Virus record (IMG/VR): IMGVR_UViG_3300029886_000150
Reading direction: 5' to 3' (one strand)
Length of the DNA stretch: 33,017 bases
Source of the DNA: a virus
Lineage: Duplodnaviria; Heunggongvirae; Uroviricota; Caudoviricetes
The notes beneath the pieces are model-generated. The model made no database searches. It saw only the letters and a list, made by a program, of their open reading frames with translations, and was not told the DNA's origin. A program made the translations under genes and the position numbers. The number at the start of each line of letters is the position of its first letter. Positions within the stretch are counted from its first letter, which is position 1. Below are positions 3,588 to 27,605 of this stretch, piece after piece.

Positions 3588-3859
3588 GTATTCGTATCGA
3601 AATTGGCGAACGTTATGTCGTTACCAGTGACAGCTTTCAGTTTATTCTCCACGAGAAAAAGAGAGCGGAAAGCGGTAAAAACGCCGGTCAGGAATGGCTG
3701 GCGGTGGTTGGTTATTACCCGAAATTAAGCCAGCTCGTTTCCGGCCTGATGCATCACGATATTCTGACCGGAAGCGCAAAGTCTTTTGCTGATTTAAACG
3801 CGCAGGTTGAGCAACTCAGCAAGCGTTGTTCAGAGGCTTTTGGCTCATATGGCCGTTAA
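3584..3859 (+). CDS. Hypothetical early protein, 91 aa
   Basis: ATG 3584 after GGAGAACGGC; ends at 3859, overlapping the A start. Confidence 0.6.
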   Translation: MSIRIEIGERYVVTSDSFQFILHEKKRAESGKNAGQEWLAVVGYYPKLSQLVSGLMHHDILTGSAKSFADLNAQVEQLSKRCSEAFGSYGR

Positions 3860-6134
3860 AGCCTCCGGGCGTTTTGTCCCTCCGTCAGCATTTGCCGCAG
3901 GCACCGGTAAGGCGTTTACCGGTGCTTATGCATGGAACGCGCCACGCGAGGCTGTCGGGCGCGAAAGACCCCTTACACGTGACGAGATGCGTCAGGTGCA
4001 AGGTGTTTTATCCACGATTAACCGCCTGCCTTACTTTTTGCGCTCGCTGTTTACTTCACGCTATGACTACATCCGGCGCAATAAAAGCCCGGTGCACGGG
4101 TTTTATTTCCTCACATCCACTTTTCAGCGTCGTTTATGGCCGCGCATTGAGCGCGTGAATCAGCGCCATGAAATGAACACCGACGCGTCGTTACTGTTTC
4201 TGGCAGAGCGTGACCACTATGCGCGCCTGCCGGGGATGAATGACAAGGAGCTGAAAAAGTTTGCCGCCCGTATCTCATCGCAGCTTTTCATGATGTATGA
4301 GGAACTCTGCGATGCATGGGTTGATGCACATGGCGAAAAAGAATCGCTGTTTACGGATGAGGCGCAGACTCACCTGTATGGTCATGTTGCTGGCGCTGCA
4401 CGTGCTTTCAATATTTCCCCGCTCTACTGGAAAAAATACCGTAAAGGACAGATAACCACGAGGCAGGCATATTCTGCCATTGCCCGTCTGTTTAACGATG
4501 AGTGGTGGACTCATCAGCTTAAAGGCCAGCGTATGCGCTGGCATGAGGCGTTACTGATTGCTGTCGGGGAGGTCAATAAAGACCGTTCTCCTTATGCCAG
4601 TAAACATGCCATTCGTGATGTGCGTGCACGCCGCCAGGCAAATCTGGAATTTCTTAAATCGTGTGACCTTGAAAACAGGGAAACCGGCGAGCGCATCGAC
4701 CTTATCAGTAAGGTGATGGGCAGTATTTCTAATCCTGAAATTCGCCGGATGGAGCTGATGAACACCATCGCCGGAATTGAGCGTTATGCCGCCGCAGAGG
4801 GTGATGTGGGGATGTTTATCACGCTGACCGCGCCGTCAAAGTATCACCCGACACGTCAGGTCGGAAAAGGCGAAAGTAAAACCGTCCAGCTAAATCACGG
4901 CTGGAATGATGAGGCATTTAATCCAAAGGATGCGCAGCGTTATCTCTGCCATATCTGGAGCCTGATGCGCACGGCATTCAAGGATAATGATTTACAGGTC
5001 TACGGTTTGCGTGTCGTCGAGCCACACCACGACGGAACGCCGCACTGGCATATGATGCTTTTTTGTAATCCACGCCAGCGTAACCAGATTATTGAAATCA
5101 TGCGTCGCTATGCGCTCAAAGAGGATGGCGACGAAAGAGGAGCCGCGCGAAACCGTTTTCAGGCAAAACACCTTAACCGGGGCGGTGCTGCGGGATATAT
5201 CGCGAAATACATCTCAAAAAACATCGACGGCTATGCACTGGATGGTCAGCTCGATAATGATACCGGTAGGCCGCTGAAAGACACAGCTGCGGCTGTTACC
5301 GCATGGGCGTCAACGTGGCGCATTCCGCAATTTAAAACGGTTGGTCTGCCGACAATGGGGGCTTACCGTGAATTACGCAAATTGCCTCGCGGCGTCAGCA
5401 TTGCTGATGAGTTTGACGAGCGCGTCGAGGCTGCACGCGCCGCCGCAGACAGTGGTGATTTTGCGTTGTATATCAGCGCGCAGGGTGGGGCAAATGTTCC
5501 GCGCGATTGTCAGACTGTCAGAGTCGCCCGTAGCCCGTCGGATGACGTTAACGAGTACGAGGAAGAAGTCGAGAGAGTGGTCGGCATTTACGCACCGCAT
5601 CTCGGCGCGCGTCATATTCATATCACCAGAACCACGGATTGGCGCATTGTGCCGAAAGTTCCGGTCGTTGAGCCTTTGACTTTAAAAAGCGGCATCGCCG
5701 CGCCTCGGAGTCCTGTCAATAACTGTGGAAAGCTCACTGGTGGTGATACTTCGTTACCGGCTCCCACGCCTTCTGAGCACGCCGCAGCAGTGCTTAATCT
5801 GGTTGATGACGGTGTTATCGAATGGAATGAACCGGAGGTCGTGAGGACGCTCAGGGGTGCATTAAAACACGGCCTGAAAACACCAAACCGTCAGCAAAGA
5901 AACGGAAGCCCGTTAAAATCACATGAAATAGCACCGTCGGCCAGGCTGACCCGGTCGGAACGATTGCAAATCACCCGTATCCGCGTTGACCTTGCTCAGA
6001 ATGGAATCTTGCCCCAGCGATGGGAGCTTGAGGCGCTGGCGCGTGGGGCAACCATAAATTATGACGGGAAACAATTCACGTATCTGGCTGCTGATGAGTG
6101 GCCGGGATTCTCAACAGTAATGGAGTGGACATGA
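3849..6134 (+). CDS. A: Rolling-circle replication initiator / nicking endonuclease A (P2 gpA-like), 761 aa
   Basis: ORF track 3807..6134 begins at TTG; first ATG at 3849 gives 761 aa, the P2 gpA length. Sequence resembles the gpA family as recalled; position after B and the early ORFs. Confidence 0.9.
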   Translation: MAVKASGRFVPPSAFAAGTGKAFTGAYAWNAPREAVGRERPLTRDEMRQVQGVLSTINRLPYFLRSLFTSRYDYIRRNKSPVHGFYFLTSTFQRRLWPRIERVNQRHEMNTDASLLFLAERDHYARLPGMNDKELKKFAARISSQLFMMYEELCDAWVDAHGEKESLFTDEAQTHLYGHVAGAARAFNISPLYWKKYRKGQITTRQAYSAIARLFNDEWWTHQLKGQRMRWHEALLIAVGEVNKDRSPYASKHAIRDVRARRQANLEFLKSCDLENRETGERIDLISKVMGSISNPEIRRMELMNTIAGIERYAAAEGDVGMFITLTAPSKYHPTRQVGKGESKTVQLNHGWNDEAFNPKDAQRYLCHIWSLMRTAFKDNDLQVYGLRVVEPHHDGTPHWHMMLFCNPRQRNQIIEIMRRYALKEDGDERGAARNRFQAKHLNRGGAAGYIAKYISKNIDGYALDGQLDNDTGRPLKDTAAAVTAWASTWRIPQFKTVGLPTMGAYRELRKLPRGVSIADEFDERVEAARAAADSGDFALYISAQGGANVPRDCQTVRVARSPSDDVNEYEEEVERVVGIYAPHLGARHIHITRTTDWRIVPKVPVVEPLTLKSGIAAPRSPVNNCGKLTGGDTSLPAPTPSEHAAAVLNLVDDGVIEWNEPEVVRTLRGALKHGLKTPNRQQRNGSPLKSHEIAPSARLTRSERLQITRIRVDLAQNGILPQRWELEALARGATINYDGKQFTYLAADEWPGFSTVMEWT

Positions 6135-6586
6135 TGGCAAAAATTCACGAGGTAAAGCTGCACGCAAAATATTTTGACCTTGTGCTGGAAGGAAAGAAAC
6201 GCGCAGAGTTTCGGAAAAATGACCGTAATTATGAGCGCGGGGACACGTTGATTTTGCATGAATGGGTGCAGGGTGTGTATACGGGGCGAAAGGTTGAAGC
6301 CCGGATAACAGATGTTACTGACCTGTCAGACTGGCTGGCAGATTATGTCTTGCTAAGTATTGAGCTGCTTAATACAGGCGCATATGAGATTGTGAACTGG
6401 AAAGAACTTAGTGAGCGTGGTCTGGTATTCAGAATTAATCATGAAATTATGCATCAGCTCGGCCTTGCTGTTATGTATGAACCAGAGACGGGGATGTCTG
6501 GCGGGGCAATGGTTGCCACGGATGGAGCATGGAACTATTCAGATGAACAGATGGAGCGTGCAAAGCAAAACGGGTGGCTTGGATAA
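6131..6586 (+). CDS. ASCH-like (DUF3850-like) domain protein, about 151 aa, first cargo gene
   Basis: ATG at 6131 overlapping the A stop (ATGA). N-terminal segment HEVKLHAKYFDLVLEGKKRAEFRKNDRNYERGDTLILHEW matches the ASCH/DUF3850 pattern as I recall it. Confidence 0.6.
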   Translation: MMAKIHEVKLHAKYFDLVLEGKKRAEFRKNDRNYERGDTLILHEWVQGVYTGRKVEARITDVTDLSDWLADYVLLSIELLNTGAYEIVNWKELSERGLVFRINHEIMHQLGLAVMYEPETGMSGGAMVATDGAWNYSDEQMERAKQNGWLG

Positions 6587-6792
6587 TGCACAGAATACCA
6601 GGCGAGATACCGCGACATAACACTAAAAATATCAAGCTGATGGCTATTGTTCACCGTCTACAGCAGATTATGGTCAACGAAAATCTGACGCCTGACGAGC
6701 TGGTCGGGTGTGCCGAAATAGTCCGGGATAATTACGGGCGGCTTAACTATATCGGTCAGTCCAGCGTTGCGCCACCACTACGCAGACGATAG
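6586..6792 (+). CDS. Small hypothetical protein, 68 aa
   Basis: ATG 6586 overlaps the upstream stop (TAATG); ORF ends at TAG 6790-6792, followed immediately by the hairpin at 6797-6835. No recognisable motif. Confidence 0.4.
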   Translation: MHRIPGEIPRHNTKNIKLMAIVHRLQQIMVNENLTPDELVGCAEIVRDNYGRLNYIGQSSVAPPLRRR

Positions 6793-6796
6793 AGAA

Positions 6797-6835
6797 CGCC
6801 GCCAGCCGTGAAACTTGTTTTCAGGGCTGGCGGCG
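6797..6835 (+). terminator. Stem-loop element, copy 1 (11-bp GC-rich stem, 17-nt loop containing GAAACTTGTTTTCAG), followed by GTTGAACAAC
   Basis: CGCCGCCAGCC (6797-6807) pairs with GGCTGGCGGCG (6825-6835); sits 5 nt after the stop of the 68-aa ORF. No U-tract follows, so it is not a canonical intrinsic terminator. Confidence 0.5.
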
Positions 6836-7016
6836 TTGAACAACGAGCGTAGCGAGGCGTTAGTTGACAGTCATATTTTTACTGCGTAGGTGCTGGTTTT
6901 TGACGGTTGAAAGGAGTTAGGTTGGAGAGCTAACAACTTACAAATATTCAAAAGTGAGCATCCTGTTGCTAACATGAGGTCGATTTTTTTATGTGGATGA
7001 TGCAAAAAGGATAGCT

Positions 7017-7748
7017 ATGGATACTGTAATCGCTTTTCTATCACTCGCTTTTTTCGTTGCTTTTTTCATCGGGTTAATCAAGCCATCACTGGTGCGGATG
7101 CCAAACCGTAAACGTGCAAGTGCGGTTTATCTCGGAGGTGGTTTTGCATTGAGCATAATTGGTTCAATACTCTACCCAACAGAAAAAAGCCAGCCAGTTG
7201 CTAAAACTGAAACATCAACCGTAGCAGAACACCAAACCCAAAAAACATTCGAATATAGTGAAAAAACACTCAAGGAATATCGGAACGAGCCAAAGAAGAC
7301 TCGACACGATATTGTGAATAGTTACATTGACTTTAAGAAAGTGCCTGTCACCGCATCAGATGTATTTTACGCCTGCATGAGTGAGTATACATTTACCAAA
7401 GATGATGAGTTGAAACTCGGTGATGTTCTTGGGTGGTGCTTTAATGATTATGAAAATGACCCGAATTCATTAAACAATAAAATCAATCTTGATACATTTC
7501 AGAGTAATTTTAGTGGTTGGGATGGTTCTTATCGGCCATTGGAAAAACTAATTAAAGATAATATGAACGATGATTCATCTTATAAACATGTGTCAACGCT
7601 ATATCATTTGGTTTTGAATAAAGACCCGCATGCCATTGTGAAAACCACGTTTCGCGGAACTAATGCTTATGGCGGGGTGGTTAAACAGACGATCTCGGCG
7701 CGTGTTGATGTGCGAACGGGTGAAGTTGTTTCGATACTCGATAACTAA
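7017..7748 (+). CDS. Cargo protein with two predicted N-terminal transmembrane helices and a C-terminal soluble domain of about 180 aa; function unknown
   Basis: ORF track 6993..7748 starts at GTG; ATG 7017 has a better ribosome-binding site (AGGA, 5-nt spacer). Hydrophobic segments VIAFLSLAFFVAFFIGLI and AVYLGGGFALSIIGSILY. AT-rich coding sequence. Confidence 0.65.
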   Translation: MDTVIAFLSLAFFVAFFIGLIKPSLVRMPNRKRASAVYLGGGFALSIIGSILYPTEKSQPVAKTETSTVAEHQTQKTFEYSEKTLKEYRNEPKKTRHDIVNSYIDFKKVPVTASDVFYACMSEYTFTKDDELKLGDVLGWCFNDYENDPNSLNNKINLDTFQSNFSGWDGSYRPLEKLIKDNMNDDSSYKHVSTLYHLVLNKDPHAIVKTTFRGTNAYGGVVKQTISARVDVRTGEVVSILDN

Positions 7749-7765
7749 ACCAGTAAAGTGATAAA

Positions 7766-7802
7766 CGCCGTCAGTACTGAAACTTGTTTCAGGCTGACGG
7801 TG
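7766..7802 (+). terminator. Stem-loop element, copy 2 (CGCCGTCAG / CTGACGGTG stem around CTGAAACTTGTTTCAG), followed by GTTGAACGAC
   Basis: Same loop core and same downstream GTTGAAC motif as copy 1, with different but still complementary stem bases; sits 18 nt after the 2-TM gene stop. Confidence 0.5.
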
Positions 7803-7848
7803 TTGAACGACATTAACAGTGATAAATTAGTAGCGGAACACAATAATC

Positions 7849-7877
7849 TTGTTTTGTGCATGAAAAGCATGTATTGT
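7849..7877 (+). promoter_or_regulatory. Candidate sigma70-type promoter for the 224-aa cargo gene (TTGTTT, 17-nt spacer, TATTGT)
   Basis: Hexamers with a 17-nt spacer about 30 nt upstream of ATG 7908, in an AT-rich intergenic region after the copy-2 hairpin. Confidence 0.3.
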
Positions 7878-7907
7878 GCGTAAAACGTCTATTTTACGAG
7901 GTGCGTT

Positions 7908-8582
7908 ATGGTTTTTCGTGCAGATGAAAGTGCTCAACGTGGATTTGAGAAAGCATGCAGTGTATTGATTACAAATGATATCGTTGGTAATGAGAGAGCT
8001 TTTGCTCGTCAAAAACTGGAACAAATTATTGATGAATGTGGTTCCGTAGTTGATGGGTATCCAGGTTGGCATCCTTTTTTGATGGAAACTGATTCAGATA
8101 GTTTTTCTCCAATGATTCCTGATAATTGCTCAAGTTATCGACTGCTTGATCATTCTGTATATCTGGTAAATGGAATCATAACGTGTCCTTATAGTCATGC
8201 AGTTGGCCAGTTAGTTAGCAATATTCAAGCGATACGAAACAAGCATGATTTAGCTGATATAACGATAGAAGAAATTAAAGGCGTGACTTTCTACAATTCT
8301 CATACAACACCTATGTTAATTAGATGCCGTTGGAAAACTGGACTGGAAGAAGATGGCACAATCCCCCTGCGTACAGCTTTGGGGTTGATGCTTGAAAGAG
8401 AATTGCCGGGATGGAGATGGGGACGATTTAATCAGAGTTGGGAAAGCATGAGAGGGGATATTTTGGGTTATCCTCATGGCGCTAGGTCTTCTTTATTTGT
8501 CAATCAGCAAACAGGTCAGCAGCTAAAAAACGTATGGAATCAACTTATAAAAGCTGGTTTATGGGGGGATGAATATAAATAA
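7908..8582 (+). CDS. Soluble cargo protein, 224 aa, function unknown
   Basis: ATG 7908 after GAGG; AT-rich; last gene before the cos region. No motif I can assign to a known family. Confidence 0.65.
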   Translation: MVFRADESAQRGFEKACSVLITNDIVGNERAFARQKLEQIIDECGSVVDGYPGWHPFLMETDSDSFSPMIPDNCSSYRLLDHSVYLVNGIITCPYSHAVGQLVSNIQAIRNKHDLADITIEEIKGVTFYNSHTTPMLIRCRWKTGLEEDGTIPLRTALGLMLERELPGWRWGRFNQSWESMRGDILGYPHGARSSLFVNQQTGQQLKNVWNQLIKAGLWGDEYK

Positions 8583-8912: not shown

Positions 8913-9947
8913 TCAGCCGTTGTCAGTGTCCAGTGAGTAGTTTTTAAAGCGGATGACTTCCTGGCCGAGCCAGCCGTTTATCTCGCGGATCCTGTCCTGT
9001 AGCGGGATAAGCTCATTGCGGACAAAGACCTTTGCCACTTTCTCAATATCGCCCAGCGACCCGACGTTCTCCGGCTTGCCGCCCATCAACTGAAAGGGGA
9101 TGCGGTGCGCGTCCAGCAGGTCAGCGGCGCTGGCTTTTTTGATATTAAAAAAATCGTCCTTCGTTGCCACTTCACTGAGCGGGATAATTTTAATGCCGTC
9201 GGCTTTCCCCTGTGGGGCATAGAGAAACAGGTTTTTAAAGTTGTTGCGGCCTTTCGACTTCACCATGTTTTCGCGGAGCATTTCGATATCGTTGCGATCC
9301 TGCACGGCATCGGTGACGTACATGATGTATCCGGCATGTGCGCCGTTTTCGTAATACTTGCGGCGGAACAGCGTGGCTGATTCATTCAGCCAGGCAGAGT
9401 TAAGGGCGCTGAGATATTCCGGCAGGCCGTACAGCTCCTGATTGATATCCGGCTCCAGCAGGTGAAACACGGAGCCGGGCGTGAAAGGTGTTGGCTCGTT
9501 GAAGGACGGCACCCACCAGTAAATATCTTCTTCCACACCACGGCGGGTATATTTTGCCGGTGAGGTTTCCAGTCTGATGACCTTACCGGTGGTGCTGTAA
9601 CGCTTTTCCAGAAACGCATTACCGAACACCAGAAAATCCAGCACAAAGCGGCTGAAATCCTGCTGGGAAAGCCACGGATGCGGGATAAATGTCGAGGCCA
9701 GAATATTACGTTTGACGTAAATCGGGGAGCTGTGATGCACGGCAGCACGCAGGCTTTTTGCCAGACCGGTAAAGCTGACCGGTGGCTCATACCATCTGCC
9801 GTTACTGATGCACTCGACGTAATCCAGAATGTCACGGCGATCGAGTACCGGCACCGGCTCACCAAAGGTGAATGCCTCCATTTTCGGGGCGCTGGCGGTC
9901 ATTGTTTTTGCCGCTGGTCGCGGTGTTTTCCCTTTTTTCTTGCTCAT
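8913..9947 (-). CDS. Q: Portal protein (P2 gpQ-like), 344 aa
   Basis: ORF 8913..9947 minus; length equals P2 gpQ and the sequence resembles it as recalled; overlaps the P stop. Confidence 0.9.
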   Translation of the reverse strand: MSKKKGKTPRPAAKTMTASAPKMEAFTFGEPVPVLDRRDILDYVECISNGRWYEPPVSFTGLAKSLRAAVHHSSPIYVKRNILASTFIPHPWLSQQDFSRFVLDFLVFGNAFLEKRYSTTGKVIRLETSPAKYTRRGVEEDIYWWVPSFNEPTPFTPGSVFHLLEPDINQELYGLPEYLSALNSAWLNESATLFRRKYYENGAHAGYIMYVTDAVQDRNDIEMLRENMVKSKGRNNFKNLFLYAPQGKADGIKIIPLSEVATKDDFFNIKKASAADLLDAHRIPFQLMGGKPENVGSLGDIEKVAKVFVRNELIPLQDRIREINGWLGQEVIRFKNYSLDTDNG

Positions 9948-11719
9948 CAGTAAAACTCCAGAATGGTGGATGTCAGCGGAGTGCTGATACCGGCGGTGAG
10001 TGGCTCATTTAACAGGGCGTGCATGGTCGCCCAGGCGAGGTCGGCGTGGCTGGCTTCCTCGCTGCGGCTGGCCTCATAGGTGGCGCTGCGTCCGCTGCTG
10101 GTCATGGTCTTGCGGATAGCCATAAACGAGCTGGTGATGTCGGTGGCGCTGACGTCATATTCCAGACAGCCACGGCGGATAACGTCTTTTGCCTTGAGCA
10201 CCATTGCGGTTTTCATTTCCGGCGTGTAGCGGATATCGCGCGCGGCGGGATAGAACGAGCGCACGAGCTGGAACACACCGACACCGAGGCCGGTGGCATC
10301 AATCCCGATGTATTCGACGTTGTATTTTTCGGTGAGTTTGCGGATGGATTCTGCCTGGGTGGCAAAGTCCATGCCTTTCCACTGGTGACGTTCAAGGATC
10401 CTGAATTTGCCACCGGCCACCACCGGCGGTGCCAGCACCACGCATCCGGCGCTGTCGCCACGGTGTGACGGGTCGTAACCAATCCATACCGGACGGGAGC
10501 CGAACGGATTGGCGGCAAACGGCGCATAGTCTTCCCATTCTTCCAGCGTGTCGACCATGCAGCGTTGCAGCTCCTCGAACGGGAACACCGACGCCTTGTC
10601 GTCAACAAATTCACACATGAACAGGTTTTTAAAATCGTCGGCGCTGTTTTCACGTTTGAGCTGCTCAATGTCGAACAGTGTGCAGCCACCTTTCAGGGCA
10701 TCCTCAATGGTGACAATCTGCCGCCACTGGCCGTCCGCACAGAGAAGACCTCCGGCAAGGGCGTTATGACTGACGTCGATTTCCACACGTTCGGCGGCGC
10801 TGGCGCGTCCCCGGTTGAACAGTTCACCCGACCAGAACGGGTAGGCGTCGTGCGCCAGCGTGGACGGGGTGGAGAAATAGGTCGAGCGCAGGTGACTCTG
10901 TGAGGCCATACCTGATGCCACCTTACGCAGTACCTGAAAATTCGGGATCCAGAAAATCTCGTCGACGTACAGGTCGCCGTTATGGCTCTGCGCGGTGTTG
11001 GAGTTGGTGCCGAGAAAAATCAGTTTTGCGCCGTTATTGCCCAGGACAATCGGGTCACCGGTCAGGTCAACGTCAACCAGCCGGGCAAAGGCGATGATGT
11101 ATTCGCGGAACACATACGCCTGCGTTTTACTGGCCGACAGAAAAATCTGGTTATGACCGGTTTTCAGGGCGCGCAGCAGCGCCTCGCGGGAAAAATAAAA
11201 CGTCGCGCCAATCTGGCGGGATTTCAGGATATCGCGGATGCGGTGCTCAAGCCCGGCGCGATACCAGTGCAACTGATATTCGAAAGACTGCTCAAAGAAA
11301 ATCTGCTCCAGCTTTTCGATGGCCTCGTCACTGAAAAAATTCTTTTTCGGTTTGCGACGCCCGCCTTTGTTGCGGTTAGCGACGTTCGGATTAAGGTCTG
11401 CCTCGTTGCCGGTCTGACTGTAACGGTTGACCCGTGCCAGTCGTTCAATCTGGCGTCCGAGCAGGTCAATTTCCTTGAAGTCACCGCCGGTTTTCTGCGG
11501 TTTGATGATGAGCTGGGTCAGCCGCGCTTCCAGACTCATTTCGACACGGCTGATGGGGGCAACGCTGTCCCAGCCGTCGCGCTGCTTCCAGCTCTGCACC
11601 GTCGGGCGTTTCATCTGCAACATGGCGGCAATCTGCGGCACGGAAAATCCCTGCCAGTACAGCAGCGCCGCCTGACGACGCGGGTCGTGTAAAAGAGTGG
11701 TGTCTGTGGTGATGGTCAT
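9947..11719 (-). CDS. P: Terminase large subunit / ATPase (P2 gpP-like), 590 aa
   Basis: ORF track 9947..11749; trimmed to ATG at 11717-11719 (MTITTDTT...), giving 590 aa, the P2 gpP length. Divergent from O. Confidence 0.9.
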   Translation of the reverse strand: MTITTDTTLLHDPRRQAALLYWQGFSVPQIAAMLQMKRPTVQSWKQRDGWDSVAPISRVEMSLEARLTQLIIKPQKTGGDFKEIDLLGRQIERLARVNRYSQTGNEADLNPNVANRNKGGRRKPKKNFFSDEAIEKLEQIFFEQSFEYQLHWYRAGLEHRIRDILKSRQIGATFYFSREALLRALKTGHNQIFLSASKTQAYVFREYIIAFARLVDVDLTGDPIVLGNNGAKLIFLGTNSNTAQSHNGDLYVDEIFWIPNFQVLRKVASGMASQSHLRSTYFSTPSTLAHDAYPFWSGELFNRGRASAAERVEIDVSHNALAGGLLCADGQWRQIVTIEDALKGGCTLFDIEQLKRENSADDFKNLFMCEFVDDKASVFPFEELQRCMVDTLEEWEDYAPFAANPFGSRPVWIGYDPSHRGDSAGCVVLAPPVVAGGKFRILERHQWKGMDFATQAESIRKLTEKYNVEYIGIDATGLGVGVFQLVRSFYPAARDIRYTPEMKTAMVLKAKDVIRRGCLEYDVSATDITSSFMAIRKTMTSSGRSATYEASRSEEASHADLAWATMHALLNEPLTAGISTPLTSTILEFY

Positions 11720-11749
11720 GAATACCTCGCCGTGATGAATACACGGCAA

Positions 11750-18164: not shown

Positions 18165-18950
18165 TTATGAGTGATTTTTATTTGATGCTTTGTATTCTAA
18201 AACCTTCTTATTGGCGTAAAAGAATTTTGTATATGACAGGAATATAACCAGACCTGAAGTGAAATAGACGAGGGATAGTATTAATAATGCTTTTTTGTGA
18301 CTGTTATTATCTTTAATCTCCTGGCTTAACCATTCGGAGTCCTCCTCGTTTAGCTGTAAGAGCTTATTGCAGGCGATTTCAGGAAGTGTGTCTTTTATAA
18401 ATACGTTTTGCAGTCTCTTGCAATCGGCAAGGCTATAAGTTTTATTAAATTCAACTGCTTTATTTTTGAAGGATAAAAGAACTTTGTCACTATAAACATA
18501 GTACATCATATTTTTATATGGTATGCCTATGGCATCTCTTACTATAGCGGATTGTTTGTTGTGTATATAACATGCGAAGAGAATATAAATAATACTGGCC
18601 AGAATTACAATTGTTGTTTTAATTATGTGTGGTGGTTTTGTTATGTCACCCCAGAAGCGAGTAAGGAAAAAATACGATGTTTTTAGTTTTCCATCAATCA
18701 GCCCCTGCTGTATCATTCTCACATCTTCGATGCCTGATACATTGATTCCGTTAATTATTTTAAATAGTTGAATGTCGCGCCATTTTTTGTCGAGCATTTT
18801 TAACTTTCTGTCTGAATACTCAAGATTGAAATGATGTGCAATAAACCTCATAAGATTACTTTTACCAAAGGTAACAAATGTTAATGCTATTAATAAAAAT
18901 AGATACAAAGAGATAAACCACCACGCATTAGTCACATTATCACTGAACAT
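18165..18950 (-). CDS. AT-rich moron: predicted 3-TM membrane protein, 261 aa, function unknown (position of P2 orf30)
   Basis: ORF 18165..18950 minus; ATG with GGAG ribosome-binding site; hydrophobic segments WWFISLYLFLLIALTFVTF, TTIVILASIIYILFACYI and ALLILSLVYFTSGLVIFLSY; opposite strand to the flanking late genes. Confidence 0.7.
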   Translation of the reverse strand: MFSDNVTNAWWFISLYLFLLIALTFVTFGKSNLMRFIAHHFNLEYSDRKLKMLDKKWRDIQLFKIINGINVSGIEDVRMIQQGLIDGKLKTSYFFLTRFWGDITKPPHIIKTTIVILASIIYILFACYIHNKQSAIVRDAIGIPYKNMMYYVYSDKVLLSFKNKAVEFNKTYSLADCKRLQNVFIKDTLPEIACNKLLQLNEEDSEWLSQEIKDNNSHKKALLILSLVYFTSGLVIFLSYTKFFYANKKVLEYKASNKNHS

Positions 18951-19033
18951 TACGCTCTCCTCGAATGTTGTATGGTCGTTCTACAAATGAATCCAGATAG
19001 CATAACTTTTATATATTGTGCAATCTCACACGC
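18951..19033. promoter_or_regulatory. Divergent promoter region: moron promoter (minus) and expected late promoter P_V (plus)
   Basis: 83-bp gap between divergent start codons; contains an imperfect dyad TGT-N11-ACA (18969-18985) resembling, but not exactly matching, the activator-site pattern I recall for P2 late promoters. Confidence 0.4.
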
Positions 19034-19669
19034 ATGAACACTCTCGCAAATATTCAGGAACTCGCGCGCGCACTGCGCAACATGATTCGCACCGGCATTA
19101 TCGTCGAAACCGACCTTAACGCCGGTCGCTGCCGCGTGCAGACCGGCGGCATGTGCACCGACTGGCTTCAGTGGCTGACCCATCGCGCAGGACGTTCGCG
19201 CACATGGTGGGCACCTTCCGTGGGGGAACAGGTGCTGATTCTGGCCGTGGGTGGTGAACTCGACACGGCGTTCGTTCTGCCGGGGATTTATTCCGGCGAT
19301 AACCCCTCGCCGTCTGTGTCGGCGGATGCCCTGCATATCCGTTTCCCTGACGGGGCGGTGATTGAATATGAACCCGAAACCAGTGCACTCACGGTAAGCG
19401 GAATTAAAACGGCCAGCGTGACGGCTTCTGATTCTGTTACTGCCACGGTGCCGGTGGTCATGGTGAAAGCATCAACCCGCGTCACCCTGGACACCCCGGA
19501 GGTGGTCTGCACCAACAGGCTGATTACCGGCACGCTGGAAGTGCAGAAGGGCGGGACGATGCGCGGCAACATTGAACACACCGGCGGTGAACTCTCATCA
19601 AACGGTAAGGTACTGCATACCCATAAACACCCCGGCGACAGCGGCGGCACAACCGGGAGTCCTCTATGA
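19034..19669 (+). CDS. V: Baseplate spike / assembly protein V (P2 gpV-like), 211 aa
   Basis: ORF track 19016 starts at TTG; ATG 19034 (MNTLANIQELARAL...) gives 211 aa as in P2 gpV. Confidence 0.9.
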   Translation: MNTLANIQELARALRNMIRTGIIVETDLNAGRCRVQTGGMCTDWLQWLTHRAGRSRTWWAPSVGEQVLILAVGGELDTAFVLPGIYSGDNPSPSVSADALHIRFPDGAVIEYEPETSALTVSGIKTASVTASDSVTATVPVVMVKASTRVTLDTPEVVCTNRLITGTLEVQKGGTMRGNIEHTGGELSSNGKVLHTHKHPGDSGGTTGSPL

Positions 19670-21459: not shown

Positions 21460-23706
21460 ATGAGCACAAAATTCAAAACCGTTATCACTACTGCCGGTGC
21501 AGCAAAGCTGGCAGCGGCAACCGCGCCGGGAGGGCGGAAGGTCAACATTACCACGATGGCCGTCGGGGATGGCGGTGGTAAATTGCCTGTCCCGGATGCC
21601 GGACAGACCGGGCTTATCCACGAAGTCTGGCGACATGCGCTGAACAAAATCAGTCAGGACAAACGAAACAGTAATTATATTATCGCAGAGCTGGTTATTC
21701 CGCCGGAGGTGGGCGGTTTCTGGATGCGTGAGCTTGGCCTGTACGATGATGCGGGAACATTAATTGCCGTGGCGAACATGGCCGAAAGTTATAAACCCGC
21801 TCTTGCCGAAGGCTCAGGGCGTTCGCAGACCTGCCGCATGGTCATCATCGTCAGCAGTGTGGCCTCAGTGGCGCTGACCATTGACACCACAACGGTGATG
21901 GCGACGCAGGATTACGTTGATGACAAAATTGCAGAACACGAACAGTCACGACGCCACCCGGACGCCTCACTGACTGCAAAAGGTTTTACTCAGTTAAGCA
22001 GCGCGACCAATAGTGAATCTGAAACGCTGGCTGCAACGCCGAAAGCGGTTAAGGCAGCGTATGACCTTGCTAACGGAAAATATACCGCTCAGGACGCCAG
22101 CACGGGGCGAAAAGGTCTTGTTCAGCTAAGTAGTGCCATCAACAGCGAATCTGAGACGCTCGCAGCAACGCCGAAGGCAGTTAAGACAGCATATGACCTT
22201 GCTAATGGCAAATACACCGCGCAGGACGCCACCACCGCGCGAAAAGGCCTTGTTCAGCTCAGTAGTGCCACCAACAGCGATTCTGAAACGCTGGCCGCAA
22301 CGCCAAAGGCGGTTAAGACAGCGTATGACCTTGCTAACGGGAAATACACTGCACAGGATGCCACCACAGCGCGAAAAGGTCTTGTCCAGCTAAGTAGCGC
22401 CACCAACAGTGATTCTGAAACGCTGGCCGCAACACCAAAAGCGGTGAAGTCTGCCAATGACAATGCTGAAAAACGTCTTCAGAAAGATCAGAACGGTGCG
22501 GATATTCCTGATAAAGAACGCTTCCTGAGTAACATTAATGTTTACAGCAAAGGTGAAGTGGATAAGAAAAAGGGAATGCGAAAGTATTCGTTTGCAGCCC
22601 CTGCAAATGTCGTTGCCGGGAAGTGGTATCCCGTTATCTTTCGCCGTGCTGCCAGCCTTTCAGGAGAAATGGCATCCCGCGTCGTTATTTCCACTGGTTG
22701 TTATAACGGCGATTATGTAATGAATAACTGCGAGTTTAATGGCATGGTTATGCCCGGAGGATGGACTGATCGTGGTTCATATGCGGCAGGTTATTTCTGG
22801 ACGTATCAGACCAATGAGCGTTCAATCCATTCCATTGTTACAAGCCTGAAAGATGATGATGTATGTAGTGTTTTTTATGTTGAAGCCAGAGCTTTCCCTG
22901 TGCAAATTCTTGCAGAGGAAGGGCTAACGGTTATTGTTCCGACAGAGGATTATGTCGTCGGTCAAACGACATATAAGTGGGGGGCAACTAATCCCGCTAC
23001 AGAAAGCACGAACGCACAGGCTATTCTGGATTTTAAAAATGGGCGCGGTTATTACTGCTCACATCCATTTATTTCCAACCTTTCAGGAAATGCTGCAACA
23101 GCCTCAAAACTCGAAACACCGAGGAAAATAGCAGGTGTTGCCTTTGATGGTTCTGGAGATATTACCCTTAATGCCAGAAATGTCGGTGCATTTGCACTTC
23201 GGCAGACAGGTAATACGGTTAATGGTGATACAGCCGTTGGATGGAATTGGGACAGTGGCGCATACAACGCTCTGATTGGGGGAGCATCTGCATTAATTCT
23301 TCACTTTAATATAAATGCTGGTAGCTGCCCGGCTGTACAGTTTCGTGTGAATTATAAAAATGGCGGTATATCTTACAGGTCAGCCCGTGATGGTTATGGT
23401 TTTGAATCTGGCTGGTCTGATTTCTATACCACAACACGAAAACCCTCAGCGGGAGATGTTGGTGCATACACCAAAGCTGAGTCAGATTCACGTTATGTGA
23501 GAGACATGCGGCTGGGCGGTGCATCTACATATAAACCAGCAAATAATGGTACTACATGGACGCATCAGGCTCCGTCAGGTTGCGTATATACCGGCATTAT
23601 TGTTCAGGATACCGGCTCAAACTCTGCCGATAACATTGGTGGCGTATATTACAGACCGGTGCAGAAATACATTAACGGGACATGGTATAACGTGGCGCAG
23701 GTATAA
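21460..23706 (+). CDS. H: Tail fibre protein H, 748 aa, with internal tandem repeats and a variable C-terminal region
   Basis: Position between I and G; N-terminal region as in P2 gpH; longer than the 669 aa I recall for P2 H, with the extra length explained by the repeat block. Confidence 0.85.
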   Translation: MSTKFKTVITTAGAAKLAAATAPGGRKVNITTMAVGDGGGKLPVPDAGQTGLIHEVWRHALNKISQDKRNSNYIIAELVIPPEVGGFWMRELGLYDDAGTLIAVANMAESYKPALAEGSGRSQTCRMVIIVSSVASVALTIDTTTVMATQDYVDDKIAEHEQSRRHPDASLTAKGFTQLSSATNSESETLAATPKAVKAAYDLANGKYTAQDASTGRKGLVQLSSAINSESETLAATPKAVKTAYDLANGKYTAQDATTARKGLVQLSSATNSDSETLAATPKAVKTAYDLANGKYTAQDATTARKGLVQLSSATNSDSETLAATPKAVKSANDNAEKRLQKDQNGADIPDKERFLSNINVYSKGEVDKKKGMRKYSFAAPANVVAGKWYPVIFRRAASLSGEMASRVVISTGCYNGDYVMNNCEFNGMVMPGGWTDRGSYAAGYFWTYQTNERSIHSIVTSLKDDDVCSVFYVEARAFPVQILAEEGLTVIVPTEDYVVGQTTYKWGATNPATESTNAQAILDFKNGRGYYCSHPFISNLSGNAATASKLETPRKIAGVAFDGSGDITLNARNVGAFALRQTGNTVNGDTAVGWNWDSGAYNALIGGASALILHFNINAGSCPAVQFRVNYKNGGISYRSARDGYGFESGWSDFYTTTRKPSAGDVGAYTKAESDSRYVRDMRLGGASTYKPANNGTTWTHQAPSGCVYTGIIVQDTGSNSADNIGGVYYRPVQKYINGTWYNVAQV
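21991..22455 (+). repeat. About 3.5 tandem copies of a 132-bp (44-aa) in-frame repeat inside H
   Basis: Units begin at 21991, 22123, 22255 and 22387 (QLSSATNSESETLAATPKAVK.AYDLANGKYTAQDA...RKGLV); nucleotide identity between units is high. Confidence 0.85.
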
Positions 23707-23709
23707 TTT

Positions 23710-24237
23710 ATGCAGCATTTAAAAAATATTACGGCGGGTAATCCAAAAACGGTTGAACAATATCAATTGACAAAGGACTTTGATGTTGTCTGGTTTTTTT
23801 CAGAAGATGGTAAGAACTGGTACGAACAACAAAAGTATTTTGCTGATGACACGATGAAAATAGCGTACGACAAAGATAATATCATCCGCTATGTGGAAAA
23901 GGATGTGACAGCTATCAGACCGGATGGATTAAGTGTTGTTGAAGTGGCGGATATTACTGCTAACCGACGGGCGGACATTTCAGGGAACTGGATGTTTAAG
24001 GACGGCAAAGTGATTAAACGCATTTATACGGCAGAGGAATTGCAGCAGCAGGCAGAAATTCGGAAAGCCAGACTTCTTGCAGATGCTGAATCCGTGATTT
24101 TGCCGCTGGAGCGCGCGGTCAGACTGAACATGGCAACAGAGGAGGAGCGCACACGGCTGGAGTCTTGGGAACGCTACAGCGTTCTGGTCAGTCGTGTGGA
24201 TCCTGCAAATCCTGAATGGCCGGAAATGCCGCAATAA
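23710..24237 (+). CDS. G: Tail fibre assembly chaperone G, 175 aa
   Basis: ORF 23710..24237 directly after H; 175 aa as in P2 gpG. Confidence 0.85.
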
Positions 24238-24428
24238 GTTGTATGAGCTCTGGTGGGAGCTTACATATCTATGGCACAGAGTAAAGCCTAATCTGACAGT
24301 CCGCTCTGTGCCATTACCGGACATACTGAGCAGAAGGCTAAAAAGGACGCTTTCAGGACATATAGCAAGGGAGCAAGGATGAAAGAATTAACCCAGTATA
24401 TTTAATGTTTCAATCATGATAGTTTCTG

Positions 24429-24461
24429 AATTAAAGGGGGGGGTACCCACCCCCTTTAATT
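24429..24461. terminator. Strong palindromic hairpin AATTAAAGGGGG (loop) CCCCCTTTAATT; candidate bidirectional terminator
   Basis: 12-bp perfect stem (24429-24440 / 24450-24461) with a 9-nt loop, overlapping the stop codon of the minus-strand 92-aa gene and about 190 bp downstream of G. Confidence 0.55.
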
Positions 24462-24738
24462 ACTTGTTCCACTCAGTCAGAATTTGGTTACTAACTTCAT
24501 CTGAGAGATTGTACCAATAAGCTGAGTTATTGGTTGCATCTACAACAATAAGCTTATCATCACTATCCATGACCGCCCTCACAATTTTGGCTGCATCCTC
24601 GACAGAGTAACTACAGTTAACATACCAGTTCGATTCAGTTGTTAAAGCCCAATTTCCTAAAGATTTAATTGCATCATACACAGCCGCATAATCTTTCGTT
24701 TTAATGAGGTCGTAAGTAATAAATAAATTATTAGCCAT
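24460..24738 (-). CDS. Hypothetical cargo protein, 92 aa, function unknown
   Basis: ORF 24460..24738 minus; ATG with GGGAG ribosome-binding site (6-nt spacer); AT-rich; alternating hydrophobic and charged segments suggest a small alpha/beta domain. Confidence 0.6.
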   Translation of the reverse strand: MANNLFITYDLIKTKDYAAVYDAIKSLGNWALTTESNWYVNCSYSVEDAAKIVRAVMDSDDKLIVVDATNNSAYWYNLSDEVSNQILTEWNK

Positions 24739-24761
24739 AAATCATCTCCCAAAGGACAAAG

Positions 24762-24784
24762 AAAAAAGCGCCTAGAAAGGCGCT
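24762..24784 (-). terminator. Rho-independent terminator between the DUF3606-like gene and the 92-aa gene (minus strand)
   Basis: Stem AGCGCCT / AGGCGCT (24767-24773, 24778-24784) with a 4-nt loop, followed on the minus strand by a 6-U tract (plus-strand A-run 24762-24767). Confidence 0.6.
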
Positions 24785-24790
24785 CATATA

Positions 24791-24970
24791 TTAATGGTCT
24801 TTAAGCCATGCCTGTACTTTCTTAGCCGAATGACCTACAGCCTGTACGGCTTGAACAAGTTTGGCCTCGCTAACTCCAAACTTTTCAGCCCAATCACGTC
24901 TCTCGTAATCCTGTTTGATACTTATTAAATCATTGTCAGGGGTACCGATTTTGGTCTTATCATCAGCCAT
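24791..24970 (-). CDS. DUF3606-like small protein, 59 aa
   Basis: ORF track 24791..25009 trimmed to ATG 24968-24970 (MADDKTKIGTPDNDLISIKQDYERRDWAEKFGVSEAKLVQAVQAVGHSAKKVQAWLKDH); the pattern matches the DUF3606 family as I recall it; GAGGA ribosome-binding site. Confidence 0.6.
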   Translation of the reverse strand: MADDKTKIGTPDNDLISIKQDYERRDWAEKFGVSEAKLVQAVQAVGHSAKKVQAWLKDH

Positions 24971-25461
24971 TTTACTGATTCCTCGTGATACAGGCTTATA
25001 CCTGCCCATTAGTTATATGGCTCCCGTGCTGCTTCGTAAACGTTCAATAATCAAACAATTGACACTGATCATAAAACCAGTTAGAGGATTTGACTCTAGC
25101 TTGGATATATGATGATGCCACCCCCTTTATATTGTTGTCGGTAACTCACAGACATTGAACTCATGCTGGTGAGTGAAAGGCTACATAAACGCCCAACATT
25201 TAAACTGCCCTCAGCAGTGTTCGCGGAGCAATATACAGGCTTCGTATTCAATCCTTGCCCTACGAGAAACCCTAGCCGTTGCCTCGTTTTCAAGTGTCAG
25301 GAAGTTCTTTGTCAGACCTCATACAGTCTTGGGCTGGGTGAGGTGCATGGGGGAAGTTGAAGCCTTAACTGTTGAGGTAAATCGAACTATAAGTGTGCAA
25401 TTTTTCAAGCTCGGCGCTATTTTAGTATTGAAAACAATTAGTACGCCCCCAAGGACAACTC

Positions 25462-26028
25462 ATGATCGAATTTATCGCAGAGCATATAAACACAGTAAGT
25501 ACACTTATCTCCGCTTTGGCAGCATTGCTAACAGCAGTTGCTACATTTTTCTTGTGGAGAGTAACAAGGCTATTAGCAGACGAGACAAAAAGGATGGTTG
25601 ACGCATCAGTTCAACCTCATGTCGTTGTGACTCTTGAACCAAATTCTTGGGCTGCTTTTTATTTTGATATCAATATTGCTAATACCGGAAATGCCCCAGC
25701 CTATGATATTGAAGTCGGATTTAATCCCCCACTGGTTAATGCAGAACATAGAAAAAATAAAGGTATACCATTTAGCAAGGTTAGCGTATTGAAAAACGGC
25801 CATTCCCTCAACAGCAGTCTTTGTAAGTATGACCAGATTAAAGATCAAGTTTATTCTGTTAGTATTAGCTGGTCTAAACAGCCGGGCTCAACTGAAAGAG
25901 AGCGGAATGAGTATTCTTATGATATGGCTTCTTTCGAGGGGGTTAGCTACTTAGGTGCAAGGAGTCCAATGACACAGATAGCTGAGCAGATGAAAAAGAT
26001 TAGAGAAGACTGGAGGCCGATTTCCTAG
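25462..26028 (+). CDS. Membrane-anchored cargo protein, 188 aa (one N-terminal TM helix plus soluble domain), function unknown; ends at an in-frame TAG
   Basis: ATG 25462 after AAGGA; hydrophobic segment VSTLISALAALLTAVATFFLW; AT-rich. The frame stays open for 41 further codons after TAG 26026-26028, to TAA 26152-26154. Confidence 0.6.
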   Translation: MIEFIAEHINTVSTLISALAALLTAVATFFLWRVTRLLADETKRMVDASVQPHVVVTLEPNSWAAFYFDINIANTGNAPAYDIEVGFNPPLVNAEHRKNKGIPFSKVSVLKNGHSLNSSLCKYDQIKDQVYSVSISWSKQPGSTERERNEYSYDMASFEGVSYLGARSPMTQIAEQMKKIREDWRPIS

Positions 26029-26289
26029 GGAAGCAAAAAAATTAAAACAGACAACTATAATTCAAGTGACAGAGCCGAGGAACAACGAGCACGTGAAGAG
26101 TGGTATCAGACCACTGCAAAGAAATGGGATAAAGAAAAGCAAAAAGATAACTAATACAATTGACCTGCTCCCCATAAATTAGCATACCACAATCTCAGGT
26201 CCGCTCTTCGCTCAAAACAGGCTGTCAGATTTGACAGAATTTTGGTTACGTAATTTGTCAGTTGGAAACAGAGAGAGTACAAATCAAGG

Positions 26290-26414
26290 CAGGCAAGCTG
26301 ATTGCCCGCCTTTTCTTTATCTGTTGTTTCATCCACTGACCAGCCAGGTCAAATAGCGTCTCATGTACTACCCAACGGAAAATAGTTGCACCCATTAACC
26401 ACGGAGTTAAACGG
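26290..26414 (+). promoter_or_regulatory. Expected late promoter region P_F upstream of FI
   Basis: Intergenic region upstream of the FI start, assigned by position as in P2; contains the dyad TGACC-N5-GGTCA (about 26350-26364). Not confirmed as an Ogr site. Confidence 0.35.
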
Positions 26415-27605
26415 ATGAGTGACTATCATCATGGCGTGCAGGTGCTGGAGATTAACGACGGCACCCGCGTCATTTCCACCGTATCTACTGCCATTGTCGG
26501 CATGGTCTGCACGGCCAGCGATGCGGATGCGGAAACCTTTCCCCTCAATAAACCTGTACTGATTACCAATGTGCAGAGCGCAATTGCAAAGGCCGGTAAA
26601 AAAGGCACGCTGGCGGCATCGTTGCAGGCCATCGCTGACCAGTCAAAACCGGTCACCGTTGTCGTGCGCGTGGAAGACGGCACCGGTGATGACGAGGAAA
26701 CGAAACTCGCACAGACCGTTTCCAATATCATCGGCACCACCGACGAAAACGGTCAGTACACCGGACTGAAAGCCCTGCTGGCGGCGGAGTCGGTAACCGG
26801 TGTTAAACCGCGTATTCTCGGTGTGCCGGGACTGGACACCAAAGAGGTTGCTGTTGCACTGGCATCCGTCTGTCAGAAGCTGCGCGCTTTCGGATATATC
26901 AGCGCATGGGGCTGTAAGACCATTTCCGAGGTGAAAGCCTACCGCCAGAATTTCAGCCAGCGTGAGCTGATGGTCATCTGGCCGGATTTCCTCGCATGGG
27001 ATACGGTCACCAGTACCACCGCCACCGCGTATGCCACCGCCCGTGCGCTGGGTCTGCGCGCTAAAATCGACCAGGAGCAGGGCTGGCATAAAACGCTGTC
27101 CAATGTCGGGGTAAACGGTGTTACCGGCATCAGTGCCTCTGTATTCTGGGATTTGCAGGAGTCCGGCACCGATGCTGACCTGTTGAACGAGTCAGGTGTC
27201 ACAACGCTGATTCGCCGTGACGGTTTCCGCTTCTGGGGTAACCGTACCTGCTCGGATGACCCGCTGTTCCTCTTTGAAAACTATACCCGCACCGCGCAGG
27301 TGCTGGCCGACACGATGGCTGAGGCGCACATGTGGGCGGTGGACAAGCCCATCACTGTAACGCTGATTCGCGACATCGTTGACGGCATCAATGCCAAATT
27401 CCGTGAGCTGAAAACAAACGGCTATATCGTGGATGCGACCTGCTGGTTCAGCGAAGAATCCAACGATGCGGAAACCCTCAAGGCCGGAAAACTGTATATC
27501 GACTACGACTATACACCGGTGCCTCCTCTTGAAAACCTGACCCTGCGCCAGCGTATTACCGATAAATACCTGGCAAATCTGGTCACCTCGGTTAACAGCA
27601 ATTAA
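26415..27605 (+). CDS. FI: Contractile tail sheath protein FI, 396 aa
   Basis: ORF 26415..27605; 396 aa as in P2 gpFI. Confidence 0.9.
   Translation: MSDYHHGVQVLEINDGTRVISTVSTAIVGMVCTASDADAETFPLNKPVLITNVQSAIAKAGKKGTLAASLQAIADQSKPVTVVVRVEDGTGDDEETKLAQTVSNIIGTTDENGQYTGLKALLAAESVTGVKPRILGVPGLDTKEVAVALASVCQKLRAFGYISAWGCKTISEVKAYRQNFSQRELMVIWPDFLAWDTVTSTTATAYATARALGLRAKIDQEQGWHKTLSNVGVNGVTGISASVFWDLQESGTDADLLNESGVTTLIRRDGFRFWGNRTCSDDPLFLFENYTRTAQVLADTMAEAHMWAVDKPITVTLIRDIVDGINAKFRELKTNGYIVDATCWFSEESNDAETLKAGKLYIDYDYTPVPPLENLTLRQRITDKYLANLVTSVNSN

Follow-up and report, generated by a model that had tools for sequence, protein, structure and literature searches.

Two minus-strand genes and the hairpin between them

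The sequence analysed here, IMG/VR virus record IMGVR_UViG_3300029886_000150 (33,017 nucleotides, taken in its entirety as the window), represents an Escherichia coli prophage of the P2-like (Peduovirus) kind, in which a DUF3606 gene and a gene for a 92-amino acid (aa) protein lie on the minus strand, with a terminator-like hairpin between them. A preliminary description of the sequence had noted that the two run against the tail operons, and the flanking genes H, G and FI are indeed all on the plus strand. The upstream gene encodes 59 aa (24791-24970, minus; ribosome-binding site (RBS) GAGGAA at 24984-24979, ATG at 24970, TAA at 24793-24791) and the downstream gene occupies 24460-24738 (minus; Shine-Dalgarno sequence (SD) GGGAG at 24750-24746, ATG at 24738). 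The assignment of the former as DUF3606-like, ending at 24970, also held: its product matches the full 54-position Pfam DUF3606 profile with 65.3 bits (cut-off 24.3; E 4e-18). A 72-aa open reading frame (ORF) starting at 25009 is too long, because the PHROG profile aligns with its residues 14-72 and the match thus begins at residue 14, which places the real start at ATG 24970. The DUF3606 protein models as a UBA-like three-helix bundle; the literature found for 'DUF3606' consists of mentions, none of them functional.

The hairpin and its U-tract (24758-24785, minus; stem-loop 24785-24766) start 5 nt past the DUF3606 stop codon, and 7 nt separate their end from the SD that serves the 92-aa gene. 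In the terminator scan the element reads GAGCGCCT-TTCT-AGGCGCTT, with 8 pairs (5 of them G-C) and a 4-nt loop, followed by the tail TTTTCTTTG, so that a GC-rich stem-loop is succeeded immediately by a U-tract on the transcribed strand, the sequence signature of an intrinsic terminator. The preliminary description had found the same hairpin at 24762-24784, with coordinates off by 1-4 nt, and had put it about 25 nt upstream of the RBS; the close spacing stands and the distance does not, since the end of the stem lies 15 nt from the SD and 27 nt from ATG 24738. Its remark that no room for a promoter is left past the terminator agrees with the 7 nt between U-tract and SD.

A 65-nt segment containing the hairpin has a fold energy of -16.5 kcal/mol (z = -2.86), and the terminator scan of a 3.5-kb region returned 10 terminator-like sites against 3.0 +/- 1.9 in shuffles. 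The motif GCGCC-N3-7-GGCGC is expected 0.41 times in 33 kb and occurs at least once in 34 of 100 shuffles; we take the hairpin to be more than chance because its position is conserved in related loci, and not for its rarity alone. When the whole window was compared with Rfam, no family passed its gathering threshold, and the matches within 24200-25500 were at chance level.

Upstream of DUF3606 lies a promoter-like element (25012-25040, minus) composed of a -35 hexamer TTTACG (25040-25035), a 17-nt spacer and a -10 hexamer TATAAC (25017-25012). The alignment of related loci, numbered here with the prefix L, retains it in the island loci L086 and L065 and in the Pantoea locus L004, and a stand-alone Yersinia ruckeri DUF3606 gene has a counterpart, TTGACG-17-TATAGC, upstream. 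The element is probably the DUF3606 promoter. Just upstream of the -35 hexamer is an inverted repeat, ACTGGT-N6-ATCAGT (25064-25081, minus), which is perfect (ACTGGT-N6-ACCAGT) in island loci; that it serves as an operator is speculation.

Promoter scans were limited to sigma-70-type consensus. The consensus scan of 23000-26500 returned no match. A promoter for the 92-aa gene inside the upstream ORF, which would have spoken against the preliminary account, was looked for with a relaxed scan of the DUF3606 ORF and the post-hairpin sequence in the window and five related loci, and the best match reached 7 of 12 positions. On the other side of the 92-aa gene, a G/C-run terminator (24429-24461) is readable on both strands as AATTAAAGGGGGGGG / CCACCCCCTTTAATT. 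On one strand it would end the 92-aa transcript and on the other the transcript from the side of gene G and an integrase remnant described below; the island locus L086 has an equivalent, GGGGGGCACCCCCCCC, between the 92-aa gene and a convergent integrase.

The hairpin stays with the 92-aa gene while the upstream gene changes

Homologues of the 92-aa protein were gathered from genomes, viral contigs and assemblies, and approximately 100 related loci were compared. These include an Enterobacterales clade with 17 distinct upstream regions (64-100% protein identity) and about 50 distant loci (31-57% identity). The GCGCC/GGCGC hairpin is present in 17/17 upstream regions of the Enterobacterales clade, with the stem ending 25-32 nt before the ATG of the 92-aa gene, whose (T)GGAGA SD is likewise conserved in the alignment; the structure is kept in relatives, as a terminator's would be. 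The gene on the other side of the hairpin is not constant. It encodes DUF3606 in the window type, L004, L057, L059, L065 and L086-L090, an unrelated 40-42-aa protein in L005, L006, L007, L008, L064, L066 and L095, and DUF2188 in L009 (Pfam E 1e-14). Where the window is compared with loci of the 42-aa type, nucleotide similarity begins at the hairpin. The hairpin travels with the 92-aa gene and not with DUF3606, and forms the fixed 5' boundary of the 92-aa cassette in Enterobacterales.

The loops vary between 4 and 6 nt (TTCT, TCCG, TCAG, TACG, CATAGC, TATAGC, CTTAGT, ATTTA, GTAA), and the stem core is invariant save for L005, which has a bulge, and L064, where two transitions keep the pairing as G-U. 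In L006 and L007 the MAFFT alignment misplaced the 5' arm, and covariation was judged by inspection. Outside the clade, the roughly 50 distant loci have no terminator-like hairpin within 120 nt of the gene, except L030 (84 nt), and no DUF3606 neighbour in tblastn searches with the window protein at E <= 1e-3; the same search found DUF3606 neighbours only in window-type islands, L002, L004, L065 and L086-L090.

DUF3606 also occurs on its own: no 92-aa gene lies close to its homologues in Y. ruckeri (77% identity) and Burkholderiales (61%). In Y. ruckeri the gene is preceded by a homologous promoter-like region and followed by a terminator of its own, AGGCGGGTTAATCCCCGCCTTTTTT, unlike the hairpin of the window, and judging from these features it would be a complete monocistronic unit. 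A further DUF3606 locus, positions 583-756 of the P2-EC53 record AJ512682 (L001), dated 2004, has the frame split into three and one base of the hairpin absent, either through sequencing error or as a pseudogene; the broken frame is probably why the pair went unannotated there.

The two genes of the window also differ in the depth of their divergence. Between window-type and island-type loci, the proportion of differing non-synonymous sites (pN) is 0.014 for DUF3606, with 0.29-0.40 of synonymous sites differing (pS); for codons 21-92 of the 92-aa gene, pN is 0.18-0.28 and pS 0.83-0.87. Between L086 and L065, pS is 0.14 for DUF3606 versus 0.74 for the 92-aa gene. Strong purifying selection acts on both, and a mosaic boundary lies about 60 nt inside the 92-aa gene. 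Such differing histories, together with the mosaic boundary, are not what is expected of toxin and antitoxin, or regulator and effector, that evolve together.

The 92-aa protein belongs to a widespread family with a Cas2-like fold

The 92-aa protein, acidic as counted from its sequence, belongs to phrog_1090. For this large, uncharacterised family we counted 139 clusters at 90% identity, and at E <= 1e-3 it extends to 2251 representative clusters. Almost every member is a stand-alone protein about 92 aa long; the longer ones, inspected for domain fusions, contain no informative Pfam domains save a doubtful 1507-aa Baseplate_J protein, and more distant relatives occur in Firmicutes phages. The protein has a Cas2/BPSL1038-like ferredoxin fold. 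Across the family, D10 at the end of beta-1, the catalytic position of Cas2, is invariant, and is accompanied by a T34-E35-S36-N37-W38 segment and a C-terminal helix; a ferredoxin-like fold in which beta-1 ends in a conserved acidic residue is also characteristic of Cas2.

At the level of sequence the protein is not a member of Cas2, having no match to Pfam CRISPR_Cas2 at E <= 0.1. Searches of Pfam, NCBIfam, PADLOC and PDB sequences gave no significant match; the sub-threshold ones (DUF3884, E 0.075; PADLOC Cas2_II, E 0.029; de novo TIM barrels) are noise. The BFVD viral fold library contributed one weak match, to an uncharacterised protein. Cas1 is absent among the called neighbours of 92-aa loci, and no array-like repeats occur in the region examined around the gene (the whole window was not scanned for repeats). 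The homology and structure search proposed in the preliminary description has cut both ways: the Cas2/VapD-type fold and the conserved aspartate favour its toxin/antitoxin suggestion, and the lack of any match to a toxin-antitoxin or defence profile does not. Because of that fold and of the aspartate at the catalytic position, the protein may have nuclease or toxin activity, and a reasonable guess is that it acts as a nuclease or nucleic-acid binder.

Some distant homologues have other neighbours. ColE1-type plasmids of Rahnella and Klebsiella (L096 2236-5112; L098 2090-4879) encode homologues of 31-36% identity between a 220-aa hypothetical protein and a PIN-like-domain protein of about 575 aa, an arrangement that may be a three-gene system. 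In L028 the homologue adjoins an upstream DUF6527 protein (Pfam E 1e-24), a component of ubiquitin-like systems, and in L018 the protein downstream resembles, by eye, a multiubiquitin-domain protein.

The cargo of the Z/fun locus carries an integrase remnant

The pair lies between the tail-fibre assembly gene G (23710-24237, plus; Pfam Caudo_TAP), which follows the tail fibre gene H (21460-23706, plus), and the sheath gene FI (26415-27605, plus; Pfam Phage_sheath); the prophage's own integrase is encoded at 1-996. This G-FI interval spans 2.1 kb at about 40% GC (range 0.37-0.45), against about 55% in the backbone. The position of the non-essential P2 gene Z/fun is one of the variable loci of P2-like phages, according to PMC9122126, which cites Nilsson et al. 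2004. Phage R18C and the 'Z-region' record of P2-EC53 contain the same insert at 98% identity, and the R18C paper lists both minus-strand ORFs as morons of unassigned function at fun(Z) (PMC6823313). At least 80% of the insert was found in 99 of 5426 complete E. coli genomes, and E. coli strain DG341-1 has the island at 99.9% identity. In 1029 E. coli genomes, as in most P2-like phages, similarity is limited to the flanks. By its position between G and FI, its atypical composition and the presence of other genes there in other P2-like phages, the pair occupies the Z/fun variable locus as accessory 'moron' cargo.

Just past G, convergent with the 92-aa gene, lies the remnant of the C-terminus of a DUF6538-type tyrosine integrase (24247-24408, plus; about 54 codons with an internal stop). 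In tblastn it aligns with the integrase of L086 at 52% identity (E 5e-12), the alignment reading ...AITGHTEQKAKKDAFRTYSKGARMKELTQYI up to a stop. An intact integrase stands in the corresponding place, convergent and about 26-31 nt past the 92-aa gene, in islands L086-L090, L091-L094 and L107-L110. In Enterobacterales the 92-aa gene is located at the end of integrative islands, of which there are two types by upstream gene: the first has DUF3606 (L086-L090, and L002 in E. coli EEC_W5), and the second, a lysine-rich gene of 40-42 aa (L091-L094, L107-L110, L111) in an approximately 12-kb element at tRNA-Thr. Outside Enterobacterales, tblastn detected no DUF6538 integrase near the 92-aa gene, a test that divergent recombinases would escape.

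Non-P2 copies of the island become similar to the window at about 25081, some 110 nt ahead of the DUF3606 start codon, and one match spans 24493-25081. Because an integrase remnant survives in the prophage, the terminator is shared and the islands have an intact integrase at that place, we conclude that the block now at Z/fun was taken from an integrative island, at its integrase end. This block comprises the promoter region, DUF3606, the hairpin, the 92-aa gene, the bidirectional terminator and the 3' end of the integrase.

The tRNA-Thr element (e.g. NZ_CP018948.1 3997327-4010947) is widespread in Enterobacteriaceae and contains a lambda-E-like major capsid gene, a gene for a 614-621-aa 'TolA-like' protein, the 42-aa gene, the hairpin, the 92-aa gene and the DUF6538 integrase. 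In appearance the element is of the phage-satellite type. The prophage slot itself holds a third cargo gene (25462-26028, plus; phrog_11802), whose product has a predicted N-terminal hydrophobic segment and gave no match in Pfam or PADLOC. Its counterpart in P2-EC53 is ORF1, a 'putative lysogenic conversion protein'; a premature stop after ...DWRPIS leaves 188 aa in the window, and the R18C and P2-EC53 products reach 230 aa. The cargo island is bounded at 24290-24322 and 26199-26231 by a 33-nt inverted repeat that is imperfect (73% complementary). These arms are the 'left/right inverted repeats' annotated in AJ512682, and the left one falls within the integrase remnant.

Read-through past an attenuator as a proposed source of 92-aa expression

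We lean, if only slightly, towards a reading in which the hairpin is a terminator or attenuator, the 92-aa gene is transcribed by read-through as an accessory gene, and the two proteins form no obligate pair. Transcription would begin at the promoter-like element of DUF3606, a self-sufficient unit, and most polymerases would be stopped, independently of Rho, at the hairpin and its U-tract. The remaining fraction would read through and produce a bicistronic RNA, on which the SD of the 92-aa gene directs translation of its product, and this RNA would end at the bidirectional terminator (24429-24461). Transcription of the 92-aa gene would accordingly be fed from whichever small gene sits upstream, and read-through would keep its product low relative to that of its upstream neighbour. 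Read-through is the simplest model because no promoter match is found past the hairpin or in the DUF3606 ORF and no room is left before the SD. The preliminary description had likewise proposed that the 92-aa gene is expressed only by read-through, and the geometry fits; the stoichiometric pairing that it attached to this proposal does not.

Several observations weigh against the attenuator reading. The proposed -10 hexamer (TATAAC or TATAAG) does not end in the canonical T, and the element went uncalled in the consensus scan. No compensatory double substitutions were seen in the stem by inspection, and we claim no covariation, so that the hairpin may be conserved through common descent of a short block as readily as through selection for its structure. 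L007 keeps the stem with a poor U-tract, which hints at a role other than termination. Finally, some small gene is located directly upstream in every locus of the Enterobacterales clade, and the genes may follow a looser scheme of two components, the first of which can be exchanged.

We consider it unlikely that the hairpin is instead the full stop of a monocistronic DUF3606 transcript, with the 92-aa gene silent in the lysogen and expressed conditionally, from a promoter for an alternative sigma factor or an activator, or through antitermination on induction. The features of the element are those of a strong terminator (an 8-bp stem, a tetraloop and six U's right after the stem), the Y. ruckeri DUF3606 gene is monocistronic with its own terminator, and our scans cover sigma-70-type promoters only. 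Set against these points, the strong purifying selection and good SD of the 92-aa gene mean that it must be expressed, and only some 7-15 nt are available before the SD, so a promoter would overlap the hairpin or, if placed further upstream, would still meet the terminator. The three upstream-gene contexts have no conserved sequence in common ahead of the hairpin.

Lower still in our estimate is the idea, raised in the preliminary description, that DUF3606 and the 92-aa protein form a toxin-antitoxin or regulator-effector pair whose ratio is set by the intercistronic terminator. The upstream antidote would then be in excess and a Cas2/VapD-like toxin scarce; in a looser form of the idea, the upstream partners (DUF3606, the 42-aa protein, DUF2188) are interchangeable. 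The layout is like that of vapXD, in which a small gene is followed by a protein of about 90 aa with the Cas2/VapD fold, and the Cas2-like fold of the 92-aa protein with its invariant aspartate agrees with such a role. The constant presence of a small upstream gene in the Enterobacterales clade is in its favour, as is the appearance of DUF2188 upstream in three separate lineages (L009, L027, L034). Further, DNase activity is reported for BPSL1038, which by structure is the nearest relative among characterised non-CRISPR proteins (PMC10491678). These points are met by the comparison of loci, which gives no support to a conserved pair across genomes: the partner is unconserved in either direction, most of the distant 92-aa homologues are solitary or beside unrelated genes, and DUF3606 is near-invariant where the 92-aa gene differs at 18-28% of non-synonymous sites, with deeper pS. 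A 52-nt gap containing a terminator is atypical, as type II toxin-antitoxin genes usually overlap or abut, and the UBA-like model of DUF3606 is not a typical antitoxin DNA-binding fold. No known toxin or antitoxin family was matched in Pfam, NCBIfam or PADLOC, where the 92-aa protein has no significant match and DUF3606 hits only its own DUF. The resemblance to stoichiometry control claimed in the preliminary description was therefore not borne out.

A more speculative extension, which we regard as quite improbable, would make the 92-aa protein the founding member, in this setting, of a large family of stand-alone Cas2-like proteins on mobile elements that act as dose-sensitive effectors (e.g. 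a nuclease toxin, or a Cas2 mimic directed against host defence or spacer acquisition) and are attenuator-wired in Enterobacterales, with the upstream DUF3606, DUF2188 and 40-42-aa proteins as alternative antidotes or regulators. It is just as doubtful that the hairpin is an element of RNA stability or processing (stabilising the upstream message at its 3' end, or shielding the 5' end of a 92-aa mRNA released by processing) or a protein-bound DNA palindrome: the 8-bp stem of L007 with its GNRA-type GUAA loop and poor U-tract, the interrupted tails of L064, L008 and L005 (ATTCATTT, ATTCTTTT) and a stem core conserved in sequence without covariation speak for it, and the T run directly after the stem in most copies, the window's included, the 4-6 nt loop variation, awkward for a DNA operator of fixed spacing, and the absence of an Rfam family speak against it.

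Other variable slots of the prophage

Two further regions of the window lie at probable variable slots. At 18165-19336 (minus), two ORFs (261 aa and 128 aa) interrupt the run of plus-strand tail and baseplate genes where P2 has its variable orf30 slot, and neither has a match in Pfam or PADLOC. ORFs of 162, 251 and 224 aa at 6098-8582 (plus) are placed by synteny at the main P2 defence hotspot, between a replication-gene-like ORF (3807-6134) and minus-strand portal- and terminase-like genes (8913-11749). PADLOC gave no match for any of the three, and Pfam none for the 251-aa and 224-aa products (the 162-aa product was not scanned); they are candidates for uncharacterised cargo.

Comparison with known systems

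The arrangement would be a new instance of the familiar grading of expression by an internal attenuator within an operon. Its unusual aspect is evolutionary: in Enterobacterales the putative attenuator keeps its place beside the downstream gene, and it is the gene upstream of it that is exchanged. If the read-through model is true, the hairpin is a tidy but ordinary internal terminator that grades expression in acquired cargo. Of more interest than the terminator are the integrase fragment, a scar left when the P2 tail-region slot took up a block from the integrase end of an island, and the delineation of a widespread, unnamed family of about 92 aa with the Cas2 fold and a conserved putative catalytic aspartate, found in phages, satellite-like islands and plasmids. 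The family is what most merits experiments.

In E. coli, the T1 terminator of rpsU-dnaG-rpoD and the rplL-rpoB attenuator are intra-operon terminators that give unequal expression of adjacent cistrons. The element described here is like them in being a GC-rich hairpin with a U-tract between co-oriented genes, with no downstream promoter and with an SD on the downstream gene. It differs in that it is part of horizontally transferred cargo and stays with the downstream gene, while the upstream position swaps among three unrelated families. The vapXD module is a type II toxin-antitoxin system in which a small upstream gene precedes a protein of about 90 aa with the Cas2/VapD fold; a small gene followed by such a protein, on mobile elements, is common to both. 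Here, by contrast, the pairing is unconserved, a 52-nt gap holds a terminator and homology to VapX or VapD profiles is lacking.

Like the P2 Z/fun morons, as these are described in PMC9122126 and PMC6823313, the pair lies between G and FI, is low in GC, runs opposite to the tail operons, is flanked by terminators and is variable. A classic moron consists of a promoter, one gene and a terminator; here there are two genes with one promoter-like region, a terminator between them and an integrase fragment.

The 92-aa protein has its closest characterised non-CRISPR counterpart by structure in BPSL1038, which is reported to be a Cas2/VapD-like DNase that is independent of CRISPR and has an additional C-terminal helix and a D11(X20)SST motif (PMC10491678). 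In sequence the 92-aa protein matches neither Cas2 (Pfam) nor any PDB chain, and its spacing is D10-x23-TES rather than D11-x20-SST. It shares with BPSL1038 the aspartate at the end of beta-1, the C-terminal helix and the absence of a linked CRISPR-Cas system, and its T-E-S-N-W segment can be aligned by eye with S32-S33-T34-A35-W36.

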